The notes below the pieces were generated by a model that was not told the origin of the DNA, did not search any database, and was given only the letters and a program-made list of their open reading frames with translations. A stretch of 64,000 bases of DNA, taken from NCBI RefSeq assembly GCF_003991155.1, contig NZ_CP031293.1; one strand, written 5' to 3'. This stretch comes from Escherichia coli (GTDB lineage Bacteria > Pseudomonadota > Gammaproteobacteria > Enterobacterales > Enterobacteriaceae). The first letter of the stretch is position 1; every line of letters begins with the position of its first letter. A program made the position numbers and the translations under genes. Shown here one piece after another: positions 19,684 to 54,381 of this stretch.

Positions 19684-19688
19684 ATCTC

Positions 19689-34836: not shown

Positions 34837-34992
34837 GTCACTCACTCTTTTTTGAATATCCATCCCTGGCACGCTTTTATCGTCTTTGCTTTACCGCCAG
34901 GGCGTCGGCCCCAAGTATAAAGCAGATAAAAACAAAAACACCATTGCGCAGGCAATGGTGTTTAATCGTCATTGAGGACTGATTGTTAAAGA

Positions 34993-35130
34993 TTACTTTT
35001 CAGCGGGGCGTTTTCTGCCGGTTGGGTTATTTACCACGCTGGATTTGTCACCTTCGGTAACTATTTTGCGCTGGTTAGAAATTTTATGGTCCAGTCCAAG
35101 AATATGACGTGCCTGACGGTTCGATTTCAT
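34993..35130 (-). CDS. sra: stationary-phase ribosome-associated protein (45 aa)
   Basis: Not in ORF track (<60 aa). ATG 35128-35130 to TAA 34993-34995 encodes [45 protein letters not shown]; RBS GGAG upstream. Confidence 0.8.
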
Positions 35131-35231
35131 TTTAACTCCTCAATCCTGTTGCTAGTTTTAAGGACAACATCGCCGTAGCGAAGAAACACGTGCTAAACCC
35201 CTAAATTAGGTTGCCGATCAAGCATAGCACC

Positions 35232-35447
35232 TTAAAGCGTAGGGTGCTGGCCACTGACCACATAATTGATCGTTTGCTGGTAGATATCACTGAGGATGTC
35301 GTTATCAGAAGCTTCCACCCATTTGGTCAGCTCCATGAGAATGTCATCTTCAGTGACAACACCGTGCTCTGCCCGAAGGCCTTGCTCAATGGCATTAACC
35401 AGAGCGGGTTCTGCTGTTGAATTTTCTGCCTGATAATAAGTAAACAT
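35232..35447 (-). CDS. bdm: biofilm-dependent modulation protein
   Basis: Track ORF trimmed to ATG 35445-35447 (MFTYYQAENSTAEPALV..., 71 aa). Confidence 0.8.
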   Translation of the reverse strand: MFTYYQAENSTAEPALVNAIEQGLRAEHGVVTEDDILMELTKWVEASDNDILSDIYQQTINYVVSGQHPTL

Positions 35448-35791
35448 AGTGATTCTCCGTGTCTGTGTATTTATGGTGTCTGCTACGGATCGCAGATTTA
35501 TAAAGCACATTCAGCATGGCAAATATTTGCCGCTTCGTTGTTAAGATTAGTCCTGGTTGATAATTTTTATATTTTAACCCCATGATATTGATAGGTATTA
35601 TTATTGTGGTGAGTTGAATGATATTGATGCAATATCTCTTGATATATATATTCCCGGTAATCTATTGTGGGAATTTAATTTAAGTGCAGAAGTAATATTT
35701 TCGCCGGATTTTATTCGGAATAACCTGCTTATCCTCGTGCGGTTTCTCACGTAGTCTATAATTTCCTTTTTAAGCCCACAGGAGAGCAACA

Positions 35792-36223
35792 ATGACAATC
35801 CATAAGAAAGGTCAGGCACACTGGGAAGGCGATATCAAACGCGGGAAGGGAACTGTATCCACCGAGAGCGGCGTGCTGAACCAACAGCCGTATGGATTTA
35901 ACACGCGTTTTGAAGGCGAAAAAGGAACCAACCCTGAAGAACTGATTGGCGCAGCGCATGCCGCATGTTTCTCAATGGCGCTTTCATTAATGCTGGGGGA
36001 AGCGGGATTCACGCCAACATCGATTGATACCACCGCCGATGTGTCGCTGGATAAAGTGGATGCCGGTTTTGCGATTACTAAAATCGCACTGAAGAGCGAA
36101 GTTGCGGTGCCGGGTATTGATGCCTCTACTTTTGACGGCATTATCCAGAAAGCAAAAGCAGGATGCCCGGTTTCTCAGGTACTGAAAGCTGAAATTACGC
36201 TTGATTACCAGTTGAAATCATAA
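35792..36223 (+). CDS. osmC: osmotically inducible peroxiredoxin
   Basis: 143 aa OsmC/Ohr-fold protein; divergent from bdm with a ~340-bp AT-rich promoter region. Confidence 0.9.
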   Translation: MTIHKKGQAHWEGDIKRGKGTVSTESGVLNQQPYGFNTRFEGEKGTNPEELIGAAHAACFSMALSLMLGEAGFTPTSIDTTADVSLDKVDAGFAITKIALKSEVAVPGIDASTFDGIIQKAKAGCPVSQVLKAEITLDYQLKS

Positions 36224-36228
36224 AGCGT

Positions 36229-36278
36229 TGCCGTATGACGCGTCAGGCGCGTGATTGCCTGATGCGTTGTTAGCGTCT
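36229..36278. repeat. REP-like palindromic sequence between osmC and ddpF
   Basis: GACGCGTCAGGCGCG...TTGCCTGATGCG resembles REP units; imperfect. Confidence 0.35.
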
Positions 36279-37205
36279 CTACAGCGCCCGCCAGCACCGG
36301 ATCTCACGTCCGTCCTCCCTTATTGTTAATGATTGCCGGACTTCACACCCGTGGGTTGCCAGAGGGCAACGTTCGCGGAAAAAACAGCCTTGTGGCAACG
36401 TGCGGTTTCCTGGTAGATCCGTTTTACGTAATGCCCATTCTTCCTCCAGCGGTTTATCAATGGCGGGGAGGGAATCCAGCAATAATCGGGTGTAGGGATG
36501 TGCCGGAGCTGTCAGCACCTGTTGCGCGTCTCCTAATTCCATAATCTGTCCGAGATACATCACCGCCACCCGATCGCTCATATGACGTATCACCGAGACA
36601 TTGTGTGAAATCAGCACATAAGTCAGCTCGCGATTTTCCTGTAGCGTTACCAGTAAATTGAGGATCTGCGCCTGCACGGAGATATCCAGCGCCGAGGTTG
36701 GTTCATCAAGCACAATCACGTCAGGCTGCGAAGAGAGTGCTCTGGCAATGGCGATACGTTGCCGCTGCCCGCCGGAGAACGCATGAGGCAAGCGGTCGAG
36801 ATACTCCGGACGAATACCCACCTGCACAGCCAGCTCCTCTGCCAACGCTCGCCGCTGTTGTTCACTACTACGCTTAGCAATCCAGAGCGGTTCCGTGATG
36901 ATGCGCCACACCGGTAAGCGCGGATTAAGCGAAGAGAGCGGGTCCTGAAACACCATCTGCATAATGCGTTGTGATCCTGAACGGATGTACTGCCCGTGGC
37001 TCGGTTGCAGCATACCCATTAAAAGCTGTGCGAGGGTGCTTTTGCCGCAACCTGACTCACCGACGATCCCTAAGGTTTCACCACGACGGATCTGTAAATC
37101 AATACCATTGATGGCATGAACATGTTCCGTAGTTTTACCAAGCCAGTTTTTTCGGGCCGGGAAATTGATATGGACGTCGCGTAACGTTAATAACGTGTCA
37201 GACAC
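36279..37205 (-). CDS. ddpF: D,D-dipeptide ABC transporter ATP-binding protein
   Basis: GTG start at 37203-37205 (xSDTLLTLRDV...) preceded by AGGAGG; Walker A GESGCGKST; 8-nt overlap with ddpD stop. Confidence 0.85.
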   Translation of the reverse strand: MSDTLLTLRDVHINFPARKNWLGKTTEHVHAINGIDLQIRRGETLGIVGESGCGKSTLAQLLMGMLQPSHGQYIRSGSQRIMQMVFQDPLSSLNPRLPVWRIITEPLWIAKRSSEQQRRALAEELAVQVGIRPEYLDRLPHAFSGGQRQRIAIARALSSQPDVIVLDEPTSALDISVQAQILNLLVTLQENRELTYVLISHNVSVIRHMSDRVAVMYLGQIMELGDAQQVLTAPAHPYTRLLLDSLPAIDKPLEEEWALRKTDLPGNRTLPQGCFFRERCPLATHGCEVRQSLTIREDGREIRCWRAL

Positions 37206-38184
37206 TAATGACCTCCTGCTGAGGATACCAACAGGCGCAGCGGTGGTTGTTGTCACCACACGCTGTTAGCGCCGGGACGTTTTCACACTGCGCACCTGCC
37301 GCATAGCAACGATCGCGAAAAGCGCAGCCGTCAGGCAAATGGGTGAGGTTTGGTACCGTCCCTGGAATGGCGGGTAATGGCTGGCGCGGTATTCCATGTT
37401 CCGGTGCGCATTGCAGCAAACCAATGGTATACGGATGCCGGGGATGATGGATAACGTCTGCCGTCACGCCGCTTTCAATCACGCTTCCGGCATACATCAC
37501 GTAAACGCTATCGCACAGTTGCGACACCACGGCCATATCATGGCTGATGAACAGTACCGCAGTTCCACTGGCGCGGGCTTTATGTTTAAGCAGACGCAGT
37601 ACCTGCAACTGTACCGTGACGTCCAGCGCCGTAGTCGGTTCGTCGGCAATAATCAATTGCGGCTCGCAGGAGAATGCCAGCGCAATCATTACCCGCTGGC
37701 GCATACCACCTGAAAGCTCAAACGGATAGCGCGACATAACTTCCACGGCATCCGGGATTTGCATCTCTTCCAGCAGGGCAATCGCTTTAGCTCTGGCTTC
37801 CCGACGACTTATTGGTTGATGATGGCGGATCACGTCCATCATCTGAAGACCTATTCGACGTGTCGGATTGAGGGCGGTCATCGGTTCCTGAAAGATCATC
37901 GCCACTCGTGCGCCGCGCCACTGACGAAGCTGCTTTTCCCGAGCGTTAAGAACATCTTCTCCCAGCAGTGAAATATGTCCCCGATGTACGCAATAACTGC
38001 CCGTCGGTAGCAGACGCATAATCAACATTGCAGTGACTGATTTACCCGAGCCGGATTCTCCCACCAGACCGACAATTTCACCGCGGTTGATTTTCAATGA
38101 CACATTGTTGAGCGCGTGAACGTCGCCGTTAAAACCGGGGAAACTCAAATGCAGTTGTTGAATGTCCAGAACGGGTTGGGTCAT
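37198..38184 (-). CDS. ddpD: D,D-dipeptide ABC transporter ATP-binding protein
   Basis: 328 aa, Walker A GESGSGKS, ABC signature LSGGMRQR. Confidence 0.85.
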   Translation of the reverse strand: MTQPVLDIQQLHLSFPGFNGDVHALNNVSLKINRGEIVGLVGESGSGKSVTAMLIMRLLPTGSYCVHRGHISLLGEDVLNAREKQLRQWRGARVAMIFQEPMTALNPTRRIGLQMMDVIRHHQPISRREARAKAIALLEEMQIPDAVEVMSRYPFELSGGMRQRVMIALAFSCEPQLIIADEPTTALDVTVQLQVLRLLKHKARASGTAVLFISHDMAVVSQLCDSVYVMYAGSVIESGVTADVIHHPRHPYTIGLLQCAPEHGIPRQPLPAIPGTVPNLTHLPDGCAFRDRCYAAGAQCENVPALTACGDNNHRCACWYPQQEVISV

Positions 38185-39077
38185 GACTGCTTTCCTCCTG
38201 CTTTCGGGTCAAGCAGATCGCGAATACCATCGCCAAAGAGATTAAACCCGACGGCGGTAAGCAAAATCGCTGCCCCCGGAAATGCGCAATACCACCATTG
38301 ATCGAGCACATAGTTGCGACCATTCGCCACCATCGCCCCCCATTCAGCACTCGGTTGTTGAGCACCAAGGCCAATAAATCCCAACGTGGCGGCCATTAAA
38401 ATCGCGCTACCGATATCCAGCGATGCCTGCACAATCAGCGGCGGCAGGGAGTTACGTAAAATATGCCAGTTGATCAGATGCCAACGCGACGCACCAAAGG
38501 TTTTCGCCGCCTGAACGAAAGTGTACTGGCGGACAACTAATGTTTGCCCCCGCGCCAGGCGCACATAAAACGGGATTCGCACGATAGCAATCGCCAGCAT
38601 GGCGTTAAACAAACTCGGCCCGAGAGCGGCTGCCAGTGCCATTGTCAGCACCAGCGAAGGAATCGACAGCATAATGTCCATGATGCGCATGATGATCGCG
38701 TCTGCGCGTCCGCCAAGCACACCGGATAGACACCCGAGTAGCGACCCCATCATACCTGCAATGGCGACCACCACTAATCCGGCGAGAATTGATTGCTGAC
38801 TGCCGACCAGTACGCGGCTAAACAGATCGCGTCCCACTTCATCGGTGCCAAACCAGTGCGCTGCAGAAGGCGGCAAAAGGCGGGCGGTTAAATCAATGGC
38901 GTTGGGATCATGCGTCGCCAGCCACGGTGAAAAAATCATCATCAATAGCATTAATACAATGATGACTGCGCCGGTCACGGTGAGCGGGCTGCCTTTCAGC
39001 ATCCATACCAGTTTTGCACCGTTAAATCGCGTTTGTTTTTGTGGGCGTACGGCGGACGTTTCCTCGCTTAGCATCAT
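38181..39077 (-). CDS. ddpC: D,D-dipeptide ABC transporter permease
   Basis: 298-aa multi-TM permease; 4-bp overlaps with both neighbours. Confidence 0.85.
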   Translation of the reverse strand: MMLSEETSAVRPQKQTRFNGAKLVWMLKGSPLTVTGAVIIVLMLLMMIFSPWLATHDPNAIDLTARLLPPSAAHWFGTDEVGRDLFSRVLVGSQQSILAGLVVVAIAGMMGSLLGCLSGVLGGRADAIIMRIMDIMLSIPSLVLTMALAAALGPSLFNAMLAIAIVRIPFYVRLARGQTLVVRQYTFVQAAKTFGASRWHLINWHILRNSLPPLIVQASLDIGSAILMAATLGFIGLGAQQPSAEWGAMVANGRNYVLDQWWYCAFPGAAILLTAVGFNLFGDGIRDLLDPKAGGKQS

Positions 39078-40096
39078 TCACCACCTCCACGTCCGATACG
39101 CGGATCAATCCACAAATAGAGCAAATCCACCACCAGGTTCACCAGCACATAAGCAAACGAAACCACGACGGCAAAGCCCATCACTGCCGGGAAGTCGAGC
39201 GCCTGTATTGATGTTACTACCCATGCACCCATTCCGGGCCAGGCAAAAACGGTTTCGGTGAGCACTGCGCCATACAACAAATCGCCCAGCGCCAGTCCCA
39301 ATACGGTAATCGAGGGGATCAACGCATTGGGTAGCGCATAACATAAAACGATATACCAGCCGGGCAAGCCGCTGGCCCGGGCGGTACGAATGTAATCTTC
39401 ACTCAATTGTTCCAGCATAGCTGAGCGGATCTGGCGGGCGACAATCCCCAGGTGAACGAACGCCAGCGTTAATGCCGGTAAGATAAGATGTTGCAACGCA
39501 TTGAAGAAGACCTCACCGTTGCCTTCAAGCAGCGCATCGAGCAGATAAAAGCCGGTAACGTGCGTTGGTGGATCCAGCCAGTCATCAAGCCTTCCGCCGC
39601 CGGGAAGAATTTGCAGATGACCATAAAACAGCACAATGACGCCCAGCCCAAGCCAGAACGCAGGTGTGGAGATTCCGGTAATGGCCATTATTCGCACCAG
39701 ATGATCCAGCCAGCGATTTCGCCAGACTGCAGAGAGTATGCCCAGCGGGATGCCAATCAGAAGTGCCAGCAGCAGGGCACAAAAAGCCAGTTCCAGCGTC
39801 GCCGGGAAAAATATACGCAACTCTTCCAGCACCGGACGCCCGGTACGAATGGATGTTCCCAGGTCACCCTGAAACAGGTCGCTGACGTAGCGGTAAAACT
39901 GTACATACAGTGGCTGGTCCAGTCCCAGTTGCTGGCGAATATTTTCCACGATGGCATCGCTGGCGCGGTCGCCAGCCAGCAACCGCGCCGGATCGCCGGG
40001 GATAAGATGCGAGATAATAAACGTAATTACGCAGACGCCCGCCACCACGAGCACCAGCCCCCAGCAGCGTTGGCGTAAAATGCTCCAGAAGGTCAC
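39074..40096 (-). CDS. ddpB: D,D-dipeptide ABC transporter permease
   Basis: 340-aa DppB-like permease. Confidence 0.85.
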   Translation of the reverse strand: MTFWSILRQRCWGLVLVVAGVCVITFIISHLIPGDPARLLAGDRASDAIVENIRQQLGLDQPLYVQFYRYVSDLFQGDLGTSIRTGRPVLEELRIFFPATLELAFCALLLALLIGIPLGILSAVWRNRWLDHLVRIMAITGISTPAFWLGLGVIVLFYGHLQILPGGGRLDDWLDPPTHVTGFYLLDALLEGNGEVFFNALQHLILPALTLAFVHLGIVARQIRSAMLEQLSEDYIRTARASGLPGWYIVLCYALPNALIPSITVLGLALGDLLYGAVLTETVFAWPGMGAWVVTSIQALDFPAVMGFAVVVSFAYVLVNLVVDLLYLWIDPRIGRGGGE

Positions 40097-40097
40097 G

Positions 40098-41648
40098 TTA
40101 TTTACTCATAGTATTGATATTGAAGACCTGTTCCAGCATGGGATTGAACACAAAGCCTTTCACCTCTTTGTTCATCGCCAGTTGATAGTTTTTCTGGAAC
40201 AGGTACACATAAGCAGCGTCATCAATGACGATTTTCTGTGCCTGCTGGTAGTCCCGGGTACGCTGCGTCTGGTCGGTGGTCGCTAGCGCATTGCGCAGTA
40301 ACTTATCGACCTCACTGTTTTCATAGAACGAGCGGTTACCCGGCAGACCTTTTTTGTCGGACTCAAACCAGTAATTCATAAACATATACGGGTCGGCAAA
40401 ATCCGGACTCCAGTTGCCAATCGCGATGTCGTAATCACCTTTACCCACTCTGTCGCGCATGGTGGCGTTCGCCAGCTTTTCCAGCTTCACATTGATGCCC
40501 AGCTTGTTGAGACTGGATTGTGTCGCCAGAGCAATAGGCTCCCAGTTCGGATCATTATCAGAATAGAGAAACGTCAGGCTGGTGGGTTTGCTCGTCACTT
40601 TATCCCATTCGGCTTTGGCTTTCGTTTCGTCATGGTTGTATTGCATTGCCGTCGCATCGTATCCCCACATGCCTTCCGGAATCGGGCCGCGCATTTGTTT
40701 TCCGTTACCACTCAGAATGCCGTTAACCATGCCCTGATAATCGGTAGACCAGGAGATAGCCCGCCGCAAATCCACCTGATTAAGTGGCGCTTTGCTGTTA
40801 TTCAGATACAGATAGGTGACGCGCAGTGACGGATACTCTGCCACATTGACTTTGTTTTCCTGCTTCAGTGCGTTGAGTTGATCCACCGGCAGCGCATCGG
40901 CAATGTCAATGTCGCCACGGGAGAGCTGCAGGCGACGGGAAGCACTTTCACCGATAATTTTTACCGATACCCGTTTGAAATTCGGTTTATTGCCGGGGTA
41001 ATGCGGATTTGGCACCAGAACTAATTGCTGACCTTTTTGCCAGCTTTTCAGCATAAACGGTCCGGAGCCAGCGGTATTTTGCGCGAGGAAACCACGGGCA
41101 TCATCCGCCGCATGCTCCTTTAAGACCGCCGGATTGATAATGGATGCACCGTCATTCGCCAGCGTGTAGAGGAACGGTGCGAATGGCTGGCTAAGGGTAA
41201 ACCTCACTGTATGTTCGTCGGGAGCATCAATCTTTAAATCTTTGGGAAATGCTTCTGCTGGCCCCTGGCCGATTTTTAGTAACCGCTCAAAAGAGAGTTT
41301 TACTGCTTCGGCAGTGACAGGTGTGCCATCGGCAAATTTAGCATTGTCCTTCAGGGTGAACGTCCACTCTTTTTGATCGTCAGACGCTTTCCAGCTACTT
41401 GCCAGATCGCCTTCAACGTCGGTTGAGCCTTTATCACCGTCCGTTTTGTACTGAACCAGTCGCTGATAAGACGGGTAGGTCACTGTCCAGTCGTTATTAT
41501 CAATTGTCACCGCTGGGTCGAGGGTTTGTGGGTCGGCAGCTTTACCGATCACCAGCATATCTTTCGGTACGGCGGCGTGCGCAACCGGCATTGTTGTGGC
41601 AAGGACGATCGCGAGCAATGTAGGACGAAACAAAATCGATCTCTTCAT
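40098..41648 (-). CDS. ddpA: D,D-dipeptide periplasmic binding protein
   Basis: Track ORF trimmed to ATG 41646-41648 (MKRSILFRPTLLAIVLATTMPVAHA signal peptide, 516 aa). Confidence 0.85.
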   Translation of the reverse strand: MKRSILFRPTLLAIVLATTMPVAHAAVPKDMLVIGKAADPQTLDPAVTIDNNDWTVTYPSYQRLVQYKTDGDKGSTDVEGDLASSWKASDDQKEWTFTLKDNAKFADGTPVTAEAVKLSFERLLKIGQGPAEAFPKDLKIDAPDEHTVRFTLSQPFAPFLYTLANDGASIINPAVLKEHAADDARGFLAQNTAGSGPFMLKSWQKGQQLVLVPNPHYPGNKPNFKRVSVKIIGESASRRLQLSRGDIDIADALPVDQLNALKQENKVNVAEYPSLRVTYLYLNNSKAPLNQVDLRRAISWSTDYQGMVNGILSGNGKQMRGPIPEGMWGYDATAMQYNHDETKAKAEWDKVTSKPTSLTFLYSDNDPNWEPIALATQSSLNKLGINVKLEKLANATMRDRVGKGDYDIAIGNWSPDFADPYMFMNYWFESDKKGLPGNRSFYENSEVDKLLRNALATTDQTQRTRDYQQAQKIVIDDAAYVYLFQKNYQLAMNKEVKGFVFNPMLEQVFNINTMSK

Positions 41649-41661
41649 GACAGTTTCCTGA

Positions 41662-42243
41662 TTAACTGGCGTGCTGTGTGCCAGGGGATATAAAACAGGT
41701 GAATTGATCAGCGAGTAGTGGGTAACTCGCGGCCTGGGGTAATTCGAAGTGCCACCATTCGCTCGGGATACCGACAAAGCCACCGCCAGTCATAATCGCA
41801 TTCAGCAACAGCCGATTGCGCTGAGCGGCTGGCGGGACGGAAGGGTGATAAGCATGGGAACGTTCGTGCATTTCATCGAACTCTGCACCCATATCCAGTA
41901 TGTTCCCGTGCTCATCACGAAGCGTCAGGTCGATCGCCGTGCCACGGCTGTGATTAGAACCGACCGCCACATCAACAACATATTGCGGGTCTGGGCAGGC
42001 TTGCCACAACATCGCCTGTGCTTGTTGTGGGCGATACGCATCGTAAATCACCAGTTGTAAGCCTGACAGCTGGGCGATACTGATACTTTTCGCCAGCGCG
42101 GTAATCGCATCCTTGTGTAACAGACAACGCGCTTGCTGATAAATAGCTTTACCTGTGATGTTATCAGCGCAGGCGTATTTCAGTTCGATCTCCAGATCAG
42201 GGAAGATCACGGCTAAATCAACCAGTTCGGTGGTATCCGACAT
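41662..42243 (-). CDS. ddpX: D-Ala-D-Ala dipeptidase (VanX-like)
   Basis: 193 aa with VanX-family zinc-binding residues (SEWWHFE). Confidence 0.85.
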   Translation of the reverse strand: MSDTTELVDLAVIFPDLEIELKYACADNITGKAIYQQARCLLHKDAITALAKSISIAQLSGLQLVIYDAYRPQQAQAMLWQACPDPQYVVDVAVGSNHSRGTAIDLTLRDEHGNILDMGAEFDEMHERSHAYHPSVPPAAQRNRLLLNAIMTGGGFVGIPSEWWHFELPQAASYPLLADQFTCFISPGTQHAS

Positions 42244-42461
42244 AAACGGTTCCTGTATAAGACAAAAATTGCTGCGCTTTCCGCTTATGCAGATCTCATG
42301 CCATGCCGGGATAAGCGCCAGAATGCTGGCTTAAAGTTATATTTTTTAACCTTTGATCAACATTTGTGCAGCGTAGTGCAGTTTTGGTGCAAGAGGGGAA
42401 GTTAAGGAAGGAATCTCCCGGAATCGTAGCTGAAATCACAGTATTTAAGTGACAGTGTCAC

Positions 42462-42487
42462 GTTAAAGGAAAACCCGCGAGTGCGGG
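42462..42487 (-). terminator. intrinsic terminator after dosP
   Basis: Hairpin CCCGC-GAGT-GCGGG (42474-42487), followed on the minus strand by TTTTCCTTTAA. Confidence 0.5.
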
Positions 42488-42500
42488 CGAGAGGAATTTG

Positions 42501-44900
42501 TCAGATTTTCAGCGGTAACACACTGCTCATCCAGCCTGGAATTTCTTCGGCGGGTAGGGGGCGGGAAAAGAAATATCCCTGAATAACGCGACAGTGGATC
42601 TTGCGTAGCATCTCAAATTGCTCTTTGGTTTCGACGCCTTCCGCCACGACGGTTAAATTAAGGCTTTGCCCAATGCTGGTAATGGCTTCAAGTAAGGCAA
42701 GGATGCGTTTTTCCGTCAGACAACGATCGACAAAACTTTTGTCAATTTTGATTTCCGTTACCGGAAGACTGACTAAGCGGGATAATCCGGAAAAGCCCGT
42801 GCCAAAATCATCTACCGATAAGCCCACGCCCATATCGCGCAGGATCTGAATGCGCTTAAAGATTTCGGTATCGTGTTCCATCATCATGCTTTCCGTGATT
42901 TCTACCGTCAGCTGGTGGCCGTCAATACCCCAGGCTTGCATTGCATCAGACACCTGATTAGGCAGCTGATTACTGCGAAAGTGCAGCGCCGACAAGTTCA
43001 CGGATAACGCCGGGATATGAATATTCTGGCTACGCCATTCTGCTAACTGACGACAAGCTTCCGCGATGACCCAGCGTCCAATATTTTCTATTTCACCGAT
43101 CTCTTCTGCGAGAGGAATAAACCGTGAAGGGGGCACATGACCATGCAGGGGATCGTGCCAGCGAGCAAGGGCTTCGATGCCGTACAGTTCACCCGTTTCT
43201 GCGAAGATTTGTGGCTGGTAAACCAGTTTCAGTTGGTTATTGCTAATTGCTTCTTTCAGCGCCGCGCCTAAAACCAAACGCTCTTTTACCATTTCGTTCA
43301 TCGCCGGGCTGAAGAACTGCCAGCCGTTACCGCCATTTTTGCGAATAAAATCCATTGCATTGTGAGCAGTGGAGAGCAGGTAATCGCGGTTTTTACCCAC
43401 GTCGTAGCTGATGCCAATGCTCAAGGTGAGCGGGAATGGTTTATCGTCAATCATTATCGGCTTGCTGACCACATTCCGTAGCTCATCGGCGATCTGCGTA
43501 ATGTTACTGACGTCGTTTTCGAGGCTCACGAGGACAAACTGCGTACCTTCGATACGACAGAGATATTGATCCGGTTTGAGTTTTTCACGAAAGCGATTGA
43601 CCACTTCCAGCAATGCCTGATCGGCCCACGCATAGCCAAGGCTATCAATCACATCCTGAATATGGTCAACACCGATGAGATACACCACCGGAGAGACGGC
43701 TTTGTCGACCAGGTCATCGAGGTAATTGTGCAGGTTATTGCGATTTGGCAGACCGGTCATCGGATCAAATTGGATGAGTTGTTCAATATGCTGACGGCTT
43801 TTTTCCTGTTCCAGCGCCAGCGCGGCCATATGCTGGCTAATATCTGCCACGCGTTCGATAAAGGCGCTGGTTTCTGCTCCTGACGAGGTTTTAATTTGCA
43901 GGATCCCCGCCGGCGCACCATCACGCTGACGAATGGTCGCTGACCAGCTTTGCGCATTTTGAACTTCTGCACCGTGCGAAGATGACGCCCAGTGTATCGG
44001 CATCCCGTTGCGCAGCGCGAACAGCGAAACATGCGATTCGTTGAGTACAGATTCGATGTTACGACAAATGATTTCCCCCATTTCATGAAATGGCGGGCTG
44101 CTGCACATGGCGGCGAGAATATTGCCTTCAAGCTGGCGGATTTGCCGTTCTTCGGTGATATCCGAGAAGGTCATTACCAGGTTCTGCAGATGCGCGAGCA
44201 CGTCATAAACCGGGCTGATAGAGGCTTTAATCCAGATTTTTTCACCGGTGCGCGTCAACAGCAGAAATTCATCCTGATCGCGGGCGGTTTTCCATAGCAA
44301 CTGTTGTAAACGAATGCGGTTATCGGCAGGGAATTCAGGAATGTTAAGGAGTGAATCGGGCTGCATACCGCTGGCTTCGCTAATGCAGTAACCAAACATT
44401 TCGGTAAATGCGCGATTGCACTGCACAATATGGCGTTCCGGATCGAGGACAATCACCGGTCGGTCGAGATGGTCAACGGCAATAATCAATTGTCGGGTCT
44501 GTTCTTTTTGCGCCATTTCTACGCTGGCATCCCGTACCAGCGCCAGGTAATAAACTTTCCCCTCGGCGCTCACTTTCGATAGCGCAAAACGGGTCCAGAT
44601 TTTACTGCCGTCTTTTTTCTCCAGCTGCAGCTCCCGACTCATCCCCTCGACGCGCGCTTTACCGCCTTCACGGTTGTGACGGATATATTCAGGATGCGCA
44701 GGACGCAAATCCCGCGGAATCAGCATATCAATGTTATTGCCAATGACTTCTTCACGTTTGTATCCCCAGAGCTTCTCTGCGGCGGGGTTGAAAAACATCA
44801 CTTCATCATTTTCGTTAATTAACACCGCGCCCATCATATTTTGCTCAAGGGCGGGGAAAAAAATGCCATCGGCGGCATTATCCGCATCGGTTAGCTTCAT
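42501..44900 (-). CDS. dosP: oxygen-sensing c-di-GMP phosphodiesterase (haem-PAS, GGDEF-EAL)
   Basis: Track ORF trimmed to ATG 44898-44900 (MKLTDADNAADGIFFP..., 799 aa). Confidence 0.9.
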   Translation of the reverse strand: MKLTDADNAADGIFFPALEQNMMGAVLINENDEVMFFNPAAEKLWGYKREEVIGNNIDMLIPRDLRPAHPEYIRHNREGGKARVEGMSRELQLEKKDGSKIWTRFALSKVSAEGKVYYLALVRDASVEMAQKEQTRQLIIAVDHLDRPVIVLDPERHIVQCNRAFTEMFGYCISEASGMQPDSLLNIPEFPADNRIRLQQLLWKTARDQDEFLLLTRTGEKIWIKASISPVYDVLAHLQNLVMTFSDITEERQIRQLEGNILAAMCSSPPFHEMGEIICRNIESVLNESHVSLFALRNGMPIHWASSSHGAEVQNAQSWSATIRQRDGAPAGILQIKTSSGAETSAFIERVADISQHMAALALEQEKSRQHIEQLIQFDPMTGLPNRNNLHNYLDDLVDKAVSPVVYLIGVDHIQDVIDSLGYAWADQALLEVVNRFREKLKPDQYLCRIEGTQFVLVSLENDVSNITQIADELRNVVSKPIMIDDKPFPLTLSIGISYDVGKNRDYLLSTAHNAMDFIRKNGGNGWQFFSPAMNEMVKERLVLGAALKEAISNNQLKLVYQPQIFAETGELYGIEALARWHDPLHGHVPPSRFIPLAEEIGEIENIGRWVIAEACRQLAEWRSQNIHIPALSVNLSALHFRSNQLPNQVSDAMQAWGIDGHQLTVEITESMMMEHDTEIFKRIQILRDMGVGLSVDDFGTGFSGLSRLVSLPVTEIKIDKSFVDRCLTEKRILALLEAITSIGQSLNLTVVAEGVETKEQFEMLRKIHCRVIQGYFFSRPLPAEEIPGWMSSVLPLKI

Positions 44901-44924
44901 AATTACCTCTGCATCCTGACGCAT

Positions 44925-46307
44925 CTAAAGACTGGCTTTCCAGAGTTCAACACGGTTTCTACCTCGTCTTTTGGCGATATACAGAGCTTCATCGGCTATT
45001 TGAATGAGGCGCTCATAGTCAGGATGACCATTAAACATGGCGGCACCGATGGAAAGTGAGAGGGCAATATCTTCGCCGTTTGCGGCTTTCAGTTTGGTTT
45101 TCTCCACCCGACTGCGAATACGTTCTGCGGTACGTAACGTTTCGTTTTCCGAAGCTTCAGTCAAAACAATGATAAATTCATCGCCACCGTAGCGGAAAAC
45201 ATAATCACTACTGCGGACGTTGTCATAAAAGGCCTGAGAGACTTTACGCAGAATTTCATCGCCAGTGTTATGGCCCCACGTATCGTTAATCTCTTTGAAT
45301 TTATCAACGTCAATAATCAGCACTGACAGCGGTGTACCGGTCCGGTTGGCATGGGCAATTTCGCGTTTGAAGATAGTCGGCAGGAAACGGCGGTTAAGTA
45401 ATTTCGTCAGGACATCCATACCGACTTCGTGGCGCGATACTTCTTCAAACAATTCACGCAACAAGGTAATAATTTGCGATACGGTATTTCTTATCTGTAA
45501 TAAAAATTTCACCCGTAAACTTCTGTTATTCAAATTCCTGGTGTTACGCATGGTTTGATTGAAAATACCGTCGAAATCCTGAATCAGACGGGAGATATGG
45601 CCCACTTCGGCTATGCCGCTAAAATAATGTCGACCTTTATGGTTAAACCACAGGCCAAAATCAGCCTGGCTTAAAGGCAAACTACTGCCTAAATCAGAAT
45701 CCAGCAGGACTTTATAGATAATATCTATTTCCCATGAAAGTATTGAGGCTATTTGCCGTTCTTTTTCTTCTTCGGCATTTTCCAGTAACGAGAAGATACG
45801 ATAGTTTTCATCTTCCTTTGAGGCACTACTGTCACTAAAGGTAAACGCGCGGGTCATCACTTCCATAGCGATATCAATACTGTTAATCGAGAAATGGTAG
45901 ACCTGAAGTTTTTCTGCGGCGGAATAATCCGAAGAGAAGATTACCGGATAGAGGATTTTTTTCAGCACCCGAAACCCCATCTCGACAATTTCTACCGGAA
46001 TTCCTATGCGGGCATGCACTTCCGCGACGGTATGCTGGATTTGTATTAGCCTTTCGACATCGTCAACCTGGGCAGAAAGCACGTTAATAATCCAGCGTTC
46101 CATCGCACTTTTCAACTGCCGCTCAACTTGTTCATTACTCAAGAATTCTTCGGCATGCGGGTCGATGCGGACAATTCGATAAAACTCAATACTCAGATAA
46201 TGAGCATGCGCAACGGCAATTTCCGCGGCTTTAGCACGAATGAGCGGATCTGCTTGTTCGACAAGCCCGGTCCACTCATCTTTCATTCTTTTAAAATACA
46301 TCTCCAT
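44925..46307 (-). CDS. dosC: globin-coupled diguanylate cyclase
   Basis: 460 aa, C-terminal GGDEF domain with RYGGDEF; co-oriented 24 bp upstream of dosP. Confidence 0.9.
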   Translation of the reverse strand: MEMYFKRMKDEWTGLVEQADPLIRAKAAEIAVAHAHYLSIEFYRIVRIDPHAEEFLSNEQVERQLKSAMERWIINVLSAQVDDVERLIQIQHTVAEVHARIGIPVEIVEMGFRVLKKILYPVIFSSDYSAAEKLQVYHFSINSIDIAMEVMTRAFTFSDSSASKEDENYRIFSLLENAEEEKERQIASILSWEIDIIYKVLLDSDLGSSLPLSQADFGLWFNHKGRHYFSGIAEVGHISRLIQDFDGIFNQTMRNTRNLNNRSLRVKFLLQIRNTVSQIITLLRELFEEVSRHEVGMDVLTKLLNRRFLPTIFKREIAHANRTGTPLSVLIIDVDKFKEINDTWGHNTGDEILRKVSQAFYDNVRSSDYVFRYGGDEFIIVLTEASENETLRTAERIRSRVEKTKLKAANGEDIALSLSIGAAMFNGHPDYERLIQIADEALYIAKRRGRNRVELWKASL

Positions 46308-46633
46308 AATTCACACCCTTATAAGGCTGGGAAAGCAGACGGAATCAAAACGAAACGCAACGTGCGAGATCGACTAACTGCACCATACTCTCCTGAAATA
46401 TGAAGATATACTGAAAACAAATAAGCGACTTAGGACAGTTTCAATCTACGCTACTGTTCTTCAGAAGAGTATAGCCCATCGTAATTATTTTTCGGTGACA
46501 GCGAATATCGTATGTTTTTTCATGTTCATACATTTTTATTAGGGGATTTATGACTGTTTAACTAAGTGTGGTTAATTGCGTAGTTAATTTGACTTAAGTA
46601 AGCATGATTACTAGTGGGATATTTCAAGAGAGT

Positions 46634-46663
46634 AACAAGCCGGGGGGAAAGCACCGGCTTGTT
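46634..46663 (-). terminator. putative terminator hairpin after yddW
   Basis: AACAAGCCGG-(10-nt loop)-CCGGCTTGTT perfect 10-bp stem, 20 nt past the yddW stop; weak U-tract. Confidence 0.35.
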
Positions 46664-46682
46664 ACAAAGTAAGAATGGGAGT

Positions 46683-48002
46683 TTAACTGCCCCAACGACT
46701 TTGCAGATAGCTGACCGCTTGTTGAGTCTGTGGCTTATTCAGATAGTCCTCACGGAACAAGATTGTGCCGCTAATTTCTGGCACGGCATCGTTAAGATCG
46801 AGCTGCTTTTTCAGTTCCGGTACGCCGCCGTTAATCATCCAGTCTGGCTCTATCTTTGAAGGTTCTCCTACTTTATAGAAGGCGATACCGATATACAGGC
46901 GGGTCCTGGTCGGTTTAACGACATCCGCCCACCATTTTGCCAACACGTCATAACGCGCGGCACTCCGTGAGAATGGCCAGTAAATTTGGGGAGCAATGTA
47001 ATCCAGCAACCCTTGTTCCACCCATCGACGGGTATCAGCGTAGGATTCGTCATAGGCTGCCGCGCCTCGGGTATCGGAACCGAGCGGATCGTGTGATCGG
47101 TTACGCCACACGCCTGCCGGGCTAACGCCAAATTCGACTTCCGGCTTAATGCTTTTAATGGTGTGCGATACCTTCGCAATTAACTGCTGAGTATTGTTGC
47201 GCCGCCAGTCTGCTTTTGACGCAAATGCGCCGCCGTATTTGCGGTACGTTTCGTTATCATTTAGCCGTGAAGCTGGTGACTCAGTATAGAAATAGTCGTC
47301 AAACTGCACGCCATCTACCGGATAGCGGGAAACCACTTCCGCAACTATTGATGTGATCCAGTCCTGAACTTCAGGGATGCCCGGGTCGAGGACAAAGCGA
47401 TCGCCGGACGTTCTGATCCAGTCGCGGTGTTGCACATAGACGCTCGCCGGTTGTTGAGACAGAGTGCTATTCAGTTCCCTGATAGTACCGGGCTTCGTAT
47501 TAACCGATACGCGATAGGGGTTAAACCAGGCGTGAACTTTCATCCCTCGCTTGTGGGCTTCGTCGAGCATGAATTGCAGCGGATCGTAACCCGGATTTTC
47601 ACCAATCTTACCGGTCATAAGATCGGACCACGGCAAAATTTTCGATGGCCACAGGGCGGTACCGTCTGGCTTGACCTGGAAAAAGACCGTGTTTATGCCG
47701 AGACGTTGCAGATGCTCCAGTTTGTCAATCATCGCTTGTTGTTGTACACGGGCCCGGCTGGTGGGGTTACTAATGTTAACCGAGGAAACCGGTGGCCAGT
47801 CGAGGCGAGACACCGTGGCCAGCCAGATGCCACGCATCGGTTGTGACGATTGTTGCGTCGTGGCTGGTGGCTTTGAACCCGCTGGTGGTGTCACCATTGA
47901 CTCTGGGGGCGTGCTTTTACAACTACACAGTAAAAGTGCCAGTGCAACCAGTATCGCTGGTCTTCTAATCGCTAATTTCTCGTTTCGGGAGCAGATATCC
48001 AT
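46683..48002 (-). CDS. yddW: lipoprotein, glycoside-hydrolase-like
   Basis: 439 aa with lipobox LLLCSC. Confidence 0.85.
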   Translation of the reverse strand: MDICSRNEKLAIRRPAILVALALLLCSCKSTPPESMVTPPAGSKPPATTQQSSQPMRGIWLATVSRLDWPPVSSVNISNPTSRARVQQQAMIDKLEHLQRLGINTVFFQVKPDGTALWPSKILPWSDLMTGKIGENPGYDPLQFMLDEAHKRGMKVHAWFNPYRVSVNTKPGTIRELNSTLSQQPASVYVQHRDWIRTSGDRFVLDPGIPEVQDWITSIVAEVVSRYPVDGVQFDDYFYTESPASRLNDNETYRKYGGAFASKADWRRNNTQQLIAKVSHTIKSIKPEVEFGVSPAGVWRNRSHDPLGSDTRGAAAYDESYADTRRWVEQGLLDYIAPQIYWPFSRSAARYDVLAKWWADVVKPTRTRLYIGIAFYKVGEPSKIEPDWMINGGVPELKKQLDLNDAVPEISGTILFREDYLNKPQTQQAVSYLQSRWGS

Positions 48003-48077
48003 ATGTGCTGGTTTCCGGTAAACAGATGTGCGCTCATTCTCGTACTTATCCCAGTTAAGTCAATACGACAGCAAGCA

Positions 48078-48108
48078 CGAAAAAGGGAGCGATGAATTAT
48101 CGCTCCCT
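48078..48108 (-). terminator. intrinsic terminator after gadC
   Basis: Hairpin GGGAGCGAT-AATTCA-ATCGCTCCC (48085-48108) followed on the minus strand by TTTTT. Confidence 0.55.
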
Positions 48109-48132
48109 TATCTTATAACCATTCAGACATGG

Positions 48133-49668
48133 TTAGTGTTTCTTGTCATTCATCACAATATAGTGTGGTGAACGTGCACGCGGGTGCAGGAAGAAGTGAC
48201 CTTTTGGTGCGTTCTGACTGTTGATTGGCTCCAGAGTGACGCCGGTATTCCCTTTGCCTTTACGATCATGAACAGCATAGAGAATAAAGGGCAGGGCAAG
48301 TACCACCAGGAAACTCACGACCAGTAATTCAACATACATATCAGTAGAGTCACCCTGGATGTTATCCGGCGGCAGGAAGGAAACAATAAACGCCATAATT
48401 GAAGTCAGCAGACCGACAATAGCCACGACCAGTTTCACCCCTTTACCACCAGGGATATTAAATGTGCGTTTTAAGTCAGGATGTTTGAGAACCAACACAA
48501 TGTAGCCAATAAACAGCATGAAATAAGCACACAGATAAATCACCACCGTCAGCGCCAGTGCGATCAGGAAGGACATGTTGTTACCGCCACCGGTATTGGT
48601 GAGGATGATCAACGCGATAGAAGTAATCACCAACTGCGAAATGACCAGCGTTACCGGTACGCCATTTTTGTTCATTTTAGCGAATGCCGCTGGCAGCAGG
48701 TTTTTCTGCGCTGTGACATACATCCCGCGAGAAGGACCAACAATCCAGGAAGCGATTTCCGCCAGAACACCCAGCAACAGCAGTGCGGAGATCACGCGAA
48801 CCGTCCACTCAATTTCCGGTGCCACATGTGACATCAGAACGGTAAAGGTTTGCATTACCCCTGCGGAGAGGTTGATTTCATTACCCGGAATGACCATCGC
48901 AATAGACAAACCGCCAACAGAGCTTAAGCAGATTGCCGCCACCATCAGCAGTAACATAGCCAGTGGATAGTCGCGCCCGGGGTTGCTCATTTCATTGACG
49001 TGGGTTGCGGAAGCTTCAACGCCCATATAACTCAAAATGAAGGCAACAAATACAACCAGGGTGCCCACTTTAGAGAAGTCAGGGAAGAAGGTCTTCGCAT
49101 CCATTTCGATTGCAACGGGGGCACCGGAGTGCAGATAAATAGCCGCTAATGCGATCAAAATAAATGCAGGTAACAGGATACCGGCGAAGAAGCCAACTTT
49201 AGCAATTCGCGCCGTGTATTTCGTGCCACCAAACTGCGTTAATGCCAGCGCCCAAAGAATGATGAGTGCTGCAATAGTTTTGGTAATGGGGTCTTCATTC
49301 AGAGCTGGCCATTTCAGGATGTAGGAGAGTGCCCCTAACACGAAATAGAGCATCGGAATAAAACCAATGGCGATTTGCAGATAGCCAAATGAGATCGCTG
49401 CAAATCCCCATCTCGGCCCCAGAGTATTTGATACCCAGGCGAAGACGCCACCTTCTTCCCAGCCGTCGACGGTAGCCATTTCCGCAGCACAAAGTCCCAC
49501 GGGAATAAACCATAAAATCCCGCCTAATAGCAGGAAGAAGACTAATGAAAAGCCCGATGTTGCGAAGGTAGGGTATTCATAAACAGCCATTACCATCGAT
49601 GCCGTTATGGCAAAAAATCCGAGTAATGTGAGCTGCTTAGCTTTACCTGTCTGTACTGATGTAGCCAT
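48133..49668 (-). CDS. gadC: glutamate:GABA antiporter
   Basis: 511-aa APC-family transporter immediately downstream of gadB. Confidence 0.9.
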
Positions 49669-49823
49669 ATTATCCCCCTAAAACGGTATTCCTGTCGGAA
49701 CCGCACCTGTTTTGTTCTGAAGCGTATTCAGAACAATATTTTCCGTTGCTAATGCCAGTGAACAGACTTTGGAAATTGTCCCGAAACGGCTTCGTTTCGG
49801 GACAGCGTTACCGTTAAACGTTA

Positions 49824-51224
49824 TCAGGTGTGTTTAAAGCTGTTCTGCTGGGCAATACCCTGCAGTTTCGGGTGGTCGCTGAGATATTTCAGGGAGGCTT
49901 TGTAGTCTTCCAGCAACAGTTCAGCAAAGTCCATTTCGAAGCCGCGACGACACATAATGCGCATCACCACGATGTCGGTGGCTTCACCGCCGAGAGTGAA
50001 GGCCGGAACCTGCCAGCCGCGCAGACGCAGACGTTCAGAGAGGTCGTACAGGGTGTATCCCGGATCTTCACCATCTTTCAGTTTGAAGCAAACCGCCGGG
50101 ATGCCTTCGTCCGGGCGACCGGTACAGATGAACTCATACGGCCCCAGTTTGGCGATTTCATCCGCCAGATAAGCGGCAACCTGGTAGGAAGCGTTCTGTA
50201 CTTTGGTATAGCCTTCACGACCGAGGCGCAGGAATTCATAGTACTGTGCAATCACCTGACCCGCCGGGCGGGAGAAGTTGATGGCGAAAGTCCCAATCTG
50301 ACCACCGAGATAGTCAACGTTGAACACCAGTTCCTGCGGCAGCGCTTCTTCATCACGCCAGATAACCCAGCCGCAGCCTAGCGGAGCCAGACCGAATTTA
50401 TGGCCTGAAGCACTGATCGATTTCACACGCGGCAGGCGGAAGTCCCAGACGATATCCGGGGCGACGAACGGTGCCAGGAAGCCACCGCTGGCAGCGTCGA
50501 TGTGCATGTCGATGTCGATACCGGTGTCGGCCTGGAATTTATCCAGCGCATCGTGCAGCGGCTGCGGGAACTCATAGTTACCGGTGTAGGTCACGCCAAA
50601 AGTCGGCACCACGCCGATGGTGTTTTCGTCGCAGGCTTCAATCATGCGTTTCGGGTCCATAAACAACTGACCGGGGCGCATAGGGATCTCACGCAACTCC
50701 ACATCCCAGTAGCGGGCGAATTTATGCCAGCAGATTTGTACCGGACCGCACACCAGGTTTGGTTTATCCGTTGGTTTGCCTGCAGCTTCCATACGCTTGC
50801 GCCAACGCCATTTCATCGCCATCCCGCCAAGCATACAGGCCTCGGAAGAACCAATGGTGTTGGTGCCAACGGCCTGACCATTTTTCGGTGCAGGCGCATG
50901 CCACAGATCGGCAACCATGTTTACGCAACGCAGGTCGATGGCCGCAGATTGCGGATATTCTTCTTTGTCGATCCAGTTTTTGTTAATGGATAAATCCATC
51001 AACTTGTGGACATTTTCGTCGTCCCAGGTCTGGCAGAAAGTGGCCAGGTTCTGACGAGCGTTGCCATCAAGATATAATTCGTCATTGATAATCTGAAATG
51101 CGACATCGTCGCGCATTTCGTGCAGCGGAAAACGTTTTGATTCTGCGATAGTGGAAATAGACTTTGCACCAAAACGTGAATCGAGTAGTTCCGACCTTAA
51201 ATCCGTTACTTGCTTCTTATCCAT
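49824..51224 (-). CDS. gadB: glutamate decarboxylase (PLP-dependent)
   Basis: Track ORF trimmed to ATG 51222-51224 ([19 protein letters not shown]..., 466 aa); PLP-lysine motif SGHKFG. Called gadB by linkage to gadC. Confidence 0.9.
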
Positions 51225-51585
51225 TTTAAACTCCTTAAAATGATTGGATCGCATTAAAAAAGTAGGATTTATCGATAAAGTAAGCAAGTGCAAAGGACTC
51301 GTGTTTAAATAACAAAATCCTAATGTTATTTATCGCGAGATATTATGCGAATTATATTTTATCATTGAAAATCAATATATTATTGAATTCTTGGGTGGTG
51401 GCAAGGTGTTTTATGCTGTTATTTTTATGCACTTTCTACGCCTCCTGAATTATCACATAAAAATCAGACCTTAAAATATCACTATTAGCACTCGGCTATT
51501 ATTTTGAACGCATTTATAAAATTATTACATAAAAATGGCGAATATTGCTAAAATCCCCGCCAACGAGGTGTTGACGGGGCTGTTA
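51225..51585 (-). promoter_or_regulatory. AT-rich gadB upstream regulatory region
   Basis: ~360 bp strongly AT-rich intergenic region upstream of gadB; expected location of acid-resistance regulator binding sites, not mapped here. Confidence 0.4.
51555..51580 (-). terminator. putative terminator after pqqL
   Basis: Minus-strand hairpin CCCCGTCAAC-ACCTC-GTTGGCGGGG followed by ATTTTAG. Confidence 0.35.
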
Positions 51586-54381
51586 TTATTTTGGCAATAA
51601 TACTCCGGTATAGGTATTCACCGGATGAGAAAGATATTGTTTAACGGCAGTGTTAACATTCTCTACCGTCATTTGTTTCAATAATTGCTCCTGCTCAGTC
51701 CATGCTGCAGGATCGTCATATTGAATAAGACTATTTACAATGGTGTTCGCTAATTGTTGAACGCTACGCTGTTGGATATCGAGGCTGCGCTGAACGTTTT
51801 GCTGGTATTCATTCAGTTCTTGCTCACTGATCCCTTTAGCCAGACGCTTAACCATCACTTCATTCGCTAACGTTAACAGTTCATCATGTCGTTCTGGTTG
51901 ACAAGTAAAAGCCAGCAAATGACTGATATCTTTGGCCTGAGGATCAACCGAGAGACGAGAAGAAACGCTGTATGCTCCAGATGCCTGTTCACGAATATTA
52001 ACGCGTAGATCTTTTGCCAGTGCGACGTTAAAAGCATCGAGCGCCATACGCGTCGCCAGATTTACAGGTGTTCGGGAATCATAACGCTTCCACTGTGAAA
52101 TCTGTGCCACAGGTTCATTTTGTTCTTTTACAGTAACCGATGCGTTGTCCGTCGCGCGAGTTAATGGTTTACCTGCGGCTAATGACGAATCAGAGTGTTT
52201 GATTGATCCTAAGTAACGCGTAATTAACGCCACGAGTTTGTCTTCTGCGACATTACCGACAATGACAAACGTGATATCCGCAGGAGATGAAAACAACTGG
52301 CGATCGGCAGCCAGCGCATCTGCGGCAGTAAACTGTGCAATCTGATTTTCTTGCAGTAATTTCGTGCGGTCATCAGCATAGCGCGTCTCATACATCTGCT
52401 GGGCGAATTTCTCCGCTGGACGCTGGTCGAGCGTTTTCAACGTCTGAATTTGAGCATTTTGCAGCGATGCCCAAATATTGTCGTTAATCGTGCTGTGGGT
52501 GATTCGCTGGTTAATCAACTGGAAACCAGGTTCAGGGTTATTAGTCCGCGCGCTAACGGAGAGCAACGTATTCATGCCACTGACTTTACTGCTCATGGTT
52601 ACCGAGTTTTCCGCACTCCAGCGTTTCAGGCTGGAAGAGGAGAGTTCACCAACGCCGCTTCCGCTTACTGCTTTATTTGCCAGCGCGATAAGTGATTTTT
52701 GCTGCGCAGGGAAACTTAAATCGCCTTTATTAGATACGGCAGTAATTTGTAGCTTTTGCTCTTCACCCGCGGATTTTGCCAGAATAACCCTGGCACCATT
52801 GGAAAGTGTTAATGATGTCAGATTCTCAGCCAGCGTTTCTTTGCTGCTAATTTCCGCCTGTGGGTCAGCGTCTACTGTTAACGATAAATTTCTGCCTGGG
52901 AAGATGTAAGCCGCCAGCTTTTTGTTGGCGTACTCTTTTTCCAGCGCCAGGATAGCCGCAGGAGACAATGCTTTTTTGGCGGCAACCTCATTGTTTACCA
53001 TTTGCTCCCAAAATGCGTCCTGGTTCTTTCTTAACTGCTGCCATTTTTCCGCCAGACTTTGCACGGTAATTTGCTGCCACAGACGTTTCGAAAGTTGATA
53101 TGTCTCTTCCGGCGACAAGAACGGCGTATTATTTAATGAGCTGGATGCCAGGCGACTGGTCAGCATACGTAAATCACGTTCAGCTTGCTGATCAACCGCA
53201 TTTTTCAGCCAGGTGAGGCGGGTAGATTTGACATCATCGAGTTCTTCAGCGGAAAAACCATGCTGATCAATAGTTGCCAACTCTGCCATTAATGCATTCG
53301 CAGCATCCTGCATATTATCGTCTCGTGCATTTACACGGAAAAACAGCGACTGATAATCGGGTGCAATTCTAACGCTGCGCGCAGTGCCGCCAGAAATAGT
53401 CTTCAACTCGCCCGACTGTATACGTTCCTGCAGACGTTGATTGAACAGCTGAACTAACATGCTCCATTCAGCTTGTTCGATAAAGCTTTGCTCATCGCTC
53501 ACTTGCACCATTGGCAGGCGATAATAGAGTGCGATGCCGTTCACCCGGTTTTCTTTATCATTGATGATATTAAAGCGCAGGTGGTTTTCGGCTTTTGTCG
53601 GCCAGACGCGATTTTCAGCTGCTTTGTTAGCCGGAAGCTTACTTAAATTATCCTTTATCAGCGCCAGCGCTTCTTTACTGTCGATATCGCCGACCACAAT
53701 AAAGGTCATATTATTTGGTTGATACCAGCGTTGATAAAATTGGCGCAATTGTGCCGGTGTGACCGTGGCGACGGTATCCATCAGGCCGATAGGTTCACGG
53801 TCTAAATTACGGGTATTTGCCAGCAGGAAAGGGCGGCGCGCCTGAGAGGTGCGCCATTTTGCATCCTGATGGGCACGCCATTCCTCAGTAATTACGCCAC
53901 GTTCAGCGTCTACTTCGAGTTTTTCAAAGGTTGCGGCATTACTCCATTCACTGAAGATTGCCATCACTTGTTGCAGATTTTGTTTCTGCGTAGTCGGCAA
54001 ACTCACCTGATACACTGTTTCGTCATAGCTGGTATAGGCATTAACATCGCGACCAAAACGCAGGCCCATTGACTCAAATGTTTCGATGACTTTATTACCC
54101 GGCCATGTTTTTGTGCCGTTAAACATCATATGTTCTACAAAATGAGCCACGCCGCGCTCATTGTCCTCTTCCTGCAATGAACCGGTATGAATTTGCAGCC
54201 ATAAATTTACCTGATCCTTTGGTTGAGCATGCGGATAAATCATATATCGCAAGCCATTGTCCAGTTGCCCGGTAATTAACTTTTCATCCTGCGGTAAGGC
54301 GGCGGCAATCAGCCGCCCGGGGAGCAACAGAGTTGCCACTAACGTCAGTAAGAAACAGAGGTTTCTCATAATTATCTCCAT
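51586..54381 (-). CDS. pqqL: M16-family zinc metallopeptidase, secreted
   Basis: 931 aa with signal peptide and inverted zinc motif HFVEH...E. Confidence 0.9.
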   Translation of the reverse strand: MEIIMRNLCFLLTLVATLLLPGRLIAAALPQDEKLITGQLDNGLRYMIYPHAQPKDQVNLWLQIHTGSLQEEDNERGVAHFVEHMMFNGTKTWPGNKVIETFESMGLRFGRDVNAYTSYDETVYQVSLPTTQKQNLQQVMAIFSEWSNAATFEKLEVDAERGVITEEWRAHQDAKWRTSQARRPFLLANTRNLDREPIGLMDTVATVTPAQLRQFYQRWYQPNNMTFIVVGDIDSKEALALIKDNLSKLPANKAAENRVWPTKAENHLRFNIINDKENRVNGIALYYRLPMVQVSDEQSFIEQAEWSMLVQLFNQRLQERIQSGELKTISGGTARSVRIAPDYQSLFFRVNARDDNMQDAANALMAELATIDQHGFSAEELDDVKSTRLTWLKNAVDQQAERDLRMLTSRLASSSLNNTPFLSPEETYQLSKRLWQQITVQSLAEKWQQLRKNQDAFWEQMVNNEVAAKKALSPAAILALEKEYANKKLAAYIFPGRNLSLTVDADPQAEISSKETLAENLTSLTLSNGARVILAKSAGEEQKLQITAVSNKGDLSFPAQQKSLIALANKAVSGSGVGELSSSSLKRWSAENSVTMSSKVSGMNTLLSVSARTNNPEPGFQLINQRITHSTINDNIWASLQNAQIQTLKTLDQRPAEKFAQQMYETRYADDRTKLLQENQIAQFTAADALAADRQLFSSPADITFVIVGNVAEDKLVALITRYLGSIKHSDSSLAAGKPLTRATDNASVTVKEQNEPVAQISQWKRYDSRTPVNLATRMALDAFNVALAKDLRVNIREQASGAYSVSSRLSVDPQAKDISHLLAFTCQPERHDELLTLANEVMVKRLAKGISEQELNEYQQNVQRSLDIQQRSVQQLANTIVNSLIQYDDPAAWTEQEQLLKQMTVENVNTAVKQYLSHPVNTYTGVLLPK

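Follow-up and report, generated by a model that had tools for sequence, protein, structure and literature searches.

The dosCP oxygen-sensing cyclic di-GMP operon of Escherichia coli in its intact, K-12-like form

A stretch of 64,000 nucleotides (nt) from Escherichia coli (contig NZ_CP031293.1, assembly GCF_003991155.1), referred to here as the window, was analysed with a focus on positions 42501..46307. This region is filled exactly by two adjoining open reading frames (ORFs) on the minus strand. They encode a globin-coupled diguanylate cyclase, DosC, and a haem-PAS phosphodiesterase, DosP, both acting on cyclic di-GMP (c-di-GMP), a second messenger. There is hardly any room for doubt that this is the E. 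coli dosCP operon (dgcO-pdeO, yddV-yddU) in its intact, K-12-like form, and nothing that was found contradicts the identification. What was observed directly comprises the identity of the genes, their domain architecture, the intactness of catalytic and haem-ligand residues, an operon-like layout and synteny. A reading of the window from its letters alone (the sequence-only reading) had proposed such a cyclase-phosphodiesterase pair, which is borne out by K-12 identity, the DosP family model NF008467, Pfam domains and structure matches. It had also called the pair known biology. This is correct, as dosCP has already been described: it is a thoroughly characterised system, found here in its standard form, and nothing about it is new.

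DosC is encoded by the first of the two genes in the direction of transcription. Pfam assigns three domains, Protoglobin (residues 26-155; 41.4 bits, cut-off 25), the middle domain DosC_2nd (residues 180-289; 167 bits, cut-off 31) and GGDEF (residues 297-452; 173 bits). The protein is a near-exact match to the solved DosC domain structures 4zva to 4zvh, with 4zva and 4zvb representing the globin domain and 4zvc the middle domain. It is identical to K-12 DosC at 458 of 460 positions (99.6%), and neither of the two substitutions (P22L and I200V, relative to K-12) affects a known functional residue. On the haem side, the distal Tyr43 and the proximal His98 are present. The active site reads GGDEF (374-378), and an RSSD inhibitory site (I-site) is found five residues upstream. 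From the identity with K-12 DosC and from the literature, we infer that the protein binds haem and has O2-dependent cyclase activity. Globin-coupled diguanylate cyclases from elsewhere, such as BpeGReg of Bordetella (PMC5549716), share the architecture of globin, middle and GGDEF domains as well as the proximal His and the distal Tyr. However, the BpeGReg-type cyclases of other genera have no haem-PAS EAL partner encoded alongside, which distinguishes them from DosC.

This partner, DosP, consists of two PAS domains, a degenerate GGDEF domain and an EAL domain (235.6 bits) according to Pfam. The NCBIfam equivalog for DosP (NF008467) matches end to end with 1643.4 bits, the cut-off being 857. 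DosP is identical to its K-12 counterpart at 794 of 799 positions (99%). The substitutions relative to K-12 (T183S, I313V, L501V, Y518F and H655Q, in 799-residue numbering) are not at known functional residues. The axial haem ligands His77 and Met95 are present together with Arg97, as are the catalytic motifs EAL (at 584), DDFGTG and EGVE (all in 807-residue numbering). The site of the degenerate GGDEF domain reads EGTQF. Structure matches cover the full-length protein (9cdr, 9bgv), the EAL domain (4hu3) and the haem-PAS domain (1v9y, 1s66). Domain searches and comparison with K-12 (99% identity for each protein) were the two checks suggested by the sequence-only reading, and both returned the predicted pair.

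The start codon of dosP requires comment. The ORF from the first ATG, directly past the dosC stop codon, begins with MRQDAEVI and codes for 807 amino acids (aa); the eight extra residues belong to the historical numbering (PMC11543664). In the divergent Escherichia locus L009, the upstream ATG is replaced by ATT, and it is absent in Citrobacter. Because this ATG is lost while the ribosome-binding site GAGG and the subsequent ATGAAGCTA start are conserved in both, the start at 44900, which yields a protein of 799 aa, is better supported than the 807-aa start. The outer limits of the region, 42501 and 46307, are the same with either start.

Gene names and coordinates from dosP to safA are those annotated for the chromosome of E. 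coli 2016C-3878 (NZ_CP029747.1). Window positions 22001..64000 match this record with 0 mismatches, and window position w corresponds to position 2141745-w of the record. For positions 1..22000, identity rests on single checks at corresponding coordinates and not on a base-by-base comparison. When positions 42001..47000 were compared by megablast with complete E. coli genomes, matches with 100% identity were obtained, which are annotated as dosP, dosC, digH and ddpX. Counts within E. coli refer to 5,426 complete genomes, of which 5,413 have some match to this region. For relatives, species-representative genomes were scanned with DosC, followed by tblastn searches with the proteins encoded by its neighbours. 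The features are listed in Table 1.

Table 1. Features of the dosCP locus, its surroundings and the accessory cyclase gene (window coordinates)
Feature	Position	Strand	Basis
dosC (dgcO, yddV), globin-coupled diguanylate cyclase, 460 aa	44925..46307	-	ORF, Pfam, K-12 identity, PDB 4zva to 4zvh
dosP (pdeO, yddU), haem-PAS c-di-GMP phosphodiesterase, 799 aa	42501..44900	-	NF008467, K-12 identity, PDB
dosP, 807-aa "historical" form	42501..44924	-	ORF from first ATG
dosC-dosP junction, 24 nt, with dosP ribosome-binding site GAGG	44901..44924	-	sequence, folding, conservation
terminator-like hairpin and U-run directly past the dosP stop codon	42473..42488	-	consensus scan; fold
digH-dosC intergenic region, putative dosC promoter and leader	46308..46682	-	sequence, alignment; RpoS-dependent expression from literature
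yddY, 13-codon upstream ORF, 37 nt before dosC	46345..46386	-	K-12 annotation b4746; read from sequence
strong hairpin past digH	46632..46665	-	fold
digH (yddW), glycosyl hydrolase-like 10 family	46683..48002	-	Pfam GHL10 E = 3e-134; annotation
gadC, glutamate:gamma-aminobutyrate (GABA) antiporter	48133..49668	-	Pfam AA_permease_2; annotation
gadB, glutamate decarboxylase	49824..51224	-	Pfam Pyridoxal_deC; annotation
ydeO, acid-stress regulator	62106..62867	-	annotation of identical record
safA, two-component connector	62942..63139	-	annotation of identical record
MASE5-GGDEF diguanylate cyclase gene, accessory, 349 aa, absent from K-12	5348..6397	-	Pfam

The 24-nt gap that extends from the dosC stop codon to the annotated start of dosP contains the GAGG ribosome-binding site and is conserved in the Escherichia and Citrobacter loci. 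When folded, it showed no stable structure or hairpin (z = 0.09). The hairpin past dosP has a folding energy of -10.9 kcal/mol (z = -3.4), and the one past digH reaches -20 kcal/mol (z = -7.1), with none of 200 shuffled sequences folding as well. As terminator-like hairpins are found on both outer sides and none lies in between, dosC and dosP are bracketed as one unit. Their co-transcription, also claimed by the sequence-only reading, is described in the literature (PMC11543664, PMC5635695): DgcO and PdeO are encoded in one operon, the stationary-phase induction of which fits the earlier-reported control by RpoS (PMC5635695), and the dosCP operon and its O2 control have been described (PMC11543664). 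The same order, strand and protein lengths (460 and 799 aa) and the same 24-nt junction are found in the K-12 operon (b1490-b1489; DgcO/PdeO, YddV/YddU), which also agrees with the window in the upstream ORF yddY and in the neighbours ddpX, digH, gadC and gadB.

The digH-dosC intergenic region comprises 375 nt. A scan for the sigma-70 consensus gave no match in this region, and fewer matches than in shuffled sequence; the lack of a sigma-70 promoter match for dosC fits the reported RpoS dependence. An alignment of the region revealed a 12-nt insertion/deletion, AATTAAC(T/C)ACGC (alignment columns 114-125), which the window shares with E. coli ATCC 25922 and which K-12 lacks. No RNA family was detected in or around dosCP by Rfam searches of the whole window at the gathering threshold and of positions 42000..47000 at E<=1. 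The only Rfam matches were a chance match to a eukaryotic long non-coding RNA and a SECIS_3 selenocysteine insertion element inside fdnG (27188..27246; 84 bits), as expected for formate dehydrogenase-N.

The upstream ORF yddY has a strong ribosome-binding site (AGGAG) and extends over 13 codons in both the window and K-12. The ribosome-binding site and the ATG are kept in Escherichia albertii, Escherichia whittamii and divergent E. coli lineages, where the ORF ends after 3-4 codons. The idea that yddY codes for a conserved leader peptide was rejected because only these 3-4 codons are left in other Escherichia lineages. Since the ribosome-binding site and the ATG are kept though the peptide is not, there is an outside chance of the ORF being a position-dependent leader that sets the translation of dosCP or the stability of its transcript.

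According to the sequence-only reading, dosCP is followed by yddW-gadC-gadB and, farther on, by ydeO-safA. All these neighbours are present, ydeO-safA according to the annotation of the identical record, and the order holds in plus-strand coordinates. In transcription order, however, gadB, gadC and digH, which are all on the minus strand, precede dosC. All of these genes, including safA-ydeO, lie within a stretch of 21 kb and share one strand, and gadBC are induced in stationary phase under RpoS control. The same type of induction is reported for dosCP (PMC5635695). It might thus be argued that dosCP, digH, gadBC and safA-ydeO constitute one stress island, in which oxygen-dependent c-di-GMP is tied mechanistically to glutamate-dependent acid resistance. 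But digH and dosC are parted by the -20 kcal/mol hairpin (z = -7.1) and the 375-nt intergenic region, and the literature consulted on dosCP does not mention a regulatory link between gad and dos. In Escherichia, Citrobacter sedlakii, Citrobacter amalonaticus, Phytobacter and two Trabulsiella loci, dosC is directly followed by dosP. By tblastn, no adjacent DosP was found for the DosC-like genes of more distant bacteria, nor for all, or at least most, of those from Enterobacter and Kluyvera. In contrast, only in Escherichia loci is dosC directly preceded by gadC-digH, followed farther upstream by gadB where the contig extends to it, so that the adjacency of gadBC, digH and dosCP is confined to this genus. 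A digH homologue is found about 1.8 kb upstream of dosC in three of the four Citrobacter loci, while the fourth has no digH match, and tblastn detected gadBC near dosCP in none of the four. In the loci from Enterobacter, Kluyvera, Phytobacter and Trabulsiella, tblastn found neither digH nor gadBC nearby. Furthermore, ATCC 25922, the sole dosC-lacking genome that was examined, retains digH and gadC beside dosP. The gad adjacency thus belongs to the make-up of the Escherichia chromosome, and because of its restriction to Escherichia, it lends no support to a functional module or link between gad and dos. A stress island is therefore rejected on synteny as highly improbable; digH-gadC-gadB and safA-ydeO are simply the usual chromosomal neighbours of dosCP in Escherichia.

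Among the 5,426 complete E. coli genomes, 5,407 contain the dosCP locus, but at least 80% of the 3.8-kb gene pair is covered in only 4,254 of the 5,426. Coverage is below 80% in ~1,150 genomes. About one fifth of E. coli genomes (~21%) appear to have lost dosC, and DosC has been described as frequently absent (PMC5635171, citing Povolotsky and Hengge 2016). ATCC 25922 is an example of the phylogroup-B2-type dos locus. Only the last 165 nt of its dosC are left (locus L005, 4925..5089), the deletion starting at the end of yddY; it retains an intact dosP and lacks the ddp operon. As in the window, dosP, digH and gadC are collinear, and the dosC promoter region is kept up to yddY. In this strain, the dosC promoter may drive dosP alone. 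The window, unlike ATCC 25922, carries an intact cyclase gene dosC. A different case is E. albertii NBRC 107761 (locus L015, 6001..8080), where an internal deletion fuses codon ~352 of dosC to codon ~453 of dosP. The fusion is out of frame, and a stop after 356 aa closes the fused frame short of the GGDEF motif. Both dosC and dosP are therefore inactivated in this type strain.

The intact pair would function as follows. DosC would make c-di-GMP from GTP, and DosP would cut c-di-GMP to pGpG, being switched on when O2 binds to its haem. A promoter upstream of dosC, active in stationary phase and dependent on RpoS, would drive both genes together, and the two proteins would form an oxygen-tuned source-and-sink pair that acts locally on polynucleotide phosphorylase (PNPase) in the RNase E degradosome. 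O2 regulation, co-transcription and degradosome association of dosCP are taken from the literature, according to which DgcO and PdeO are RNase E-binding proteins that act on PNPase within a specialised degradosome, and c-di-GMP signalling in E. coli is largely local (PMC5635695).

The identification comes with three qualifications. The allele differs from K-12 by two residues in DosC and five in DosP, none of which is known to be functional. Transcription, haem binding and enzyme activity of this copy are predicted. Also, groups disagree on the direction in which O2 controls DosC. Kitanishi and co-workers reportedly found in 2010 that the O2-bound form of DosC is active. Elsewhere, DosC is described as active in its unliganded form (PMC11543664).

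The sequence-only reading had also pointed to a separate GGDEF gene in the window (see Table 1) as a possible contributor to the same second-messenger pool. A GGDEF protein is indeed encoded. It has a MASE5 membrane sensor domain (residues 9-190) and a GGDEF domain (residues 191-346) according to Pfam, with the motif GGEEF at 267 and the conserved GGDEF-domain residues, from which cyclase activity is predicted. An RxxD I-site was not found at the usual position. The protein is 27% identical to DgcF of the same strain, over the GGDEF domain only, and is thus not a close paralogue. It may be the membrane-associated cyclase that Povolotsky and Hengge reportedly named "DgcY" in 2016. Literature searches on DgcY and MASE5 returned nothing relevant, and no characterisation of the gene was found in the literature consulted. 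An assignment as DgcX was rejected, because DgcX has an eight-helix N-terminal domain of ~270 aa and an intact I-site (PMC4287979).

This gene is accompanied by an alkyl/aryl-sulfatase gene (6492..8468, minus strand) in a 3.4-kb accessory segment (5348..8770) between yncG and pptA. K-12 MG1655 instead has yncH-rhsE-ydcD-yncI-ydcC between yncG and pptA and is devoid of an orthologue, so that the comparison with K-12 could not have identified the gene. It occurs in only 443 of the 5,426 complete genomes (~8%). With its intact GGEEF site and predicted activity, the MASE5-GGDEF cyclase might feed the pool that DosP degrades, c-di-GMP being diffusible in principle. However, the gene is ~36 kb away from dosCP, in its own accessory segment, and neither K-12 nor ~92% of complete E. 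coli genomes carry it. As it is lacking in most strains, dosCP functions without it there. Moreover, in the published account DosC and DosP work as a pair locally, attached to RNase E and PNPase (PMC5635695), and no expression or interaction data on the accessory gene were found in the literature consulted. A shared pool is thus unlikely, and the remark of the sequence-only reading is not supported, the published view of DosCP being that of a local system.

Two further features were noted elsewhere in the window. A transposase gene of IS621 (IS110 family) is found at 10831..11811, between yddE and nhoA. In IS621, a "bridge RNA" that guides recombination is encoded by the non-coding end of the element. 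The insertion site in the window is common to only 51 complete genomes, and eight places in the matching genome match a 1.7-kb query around IS621. Between fdnI and adhP (31247..31809), the annotation shows a HigA-family antitoxin gene (yddM) and a RelE/ParE-family toxin gene, which overlap by 1 base.

As a discovery, the locus carries little weight: the oxygen-sensing c-di-GMP pair dosCP is textbook material, its structures having been solved and its biochemistry characterised. Its value is in annotation. The accessory MASE5-GGDEF gene codes for an uncharacterised cyclase outside the K-12 repertoire. The comparative data back the 799-aa start of DosP. Finally, unlike about one fifth of E. coli genomes, this strain keeps the pair of cyclase and phosphodiesterase, which is predicted to be functional.

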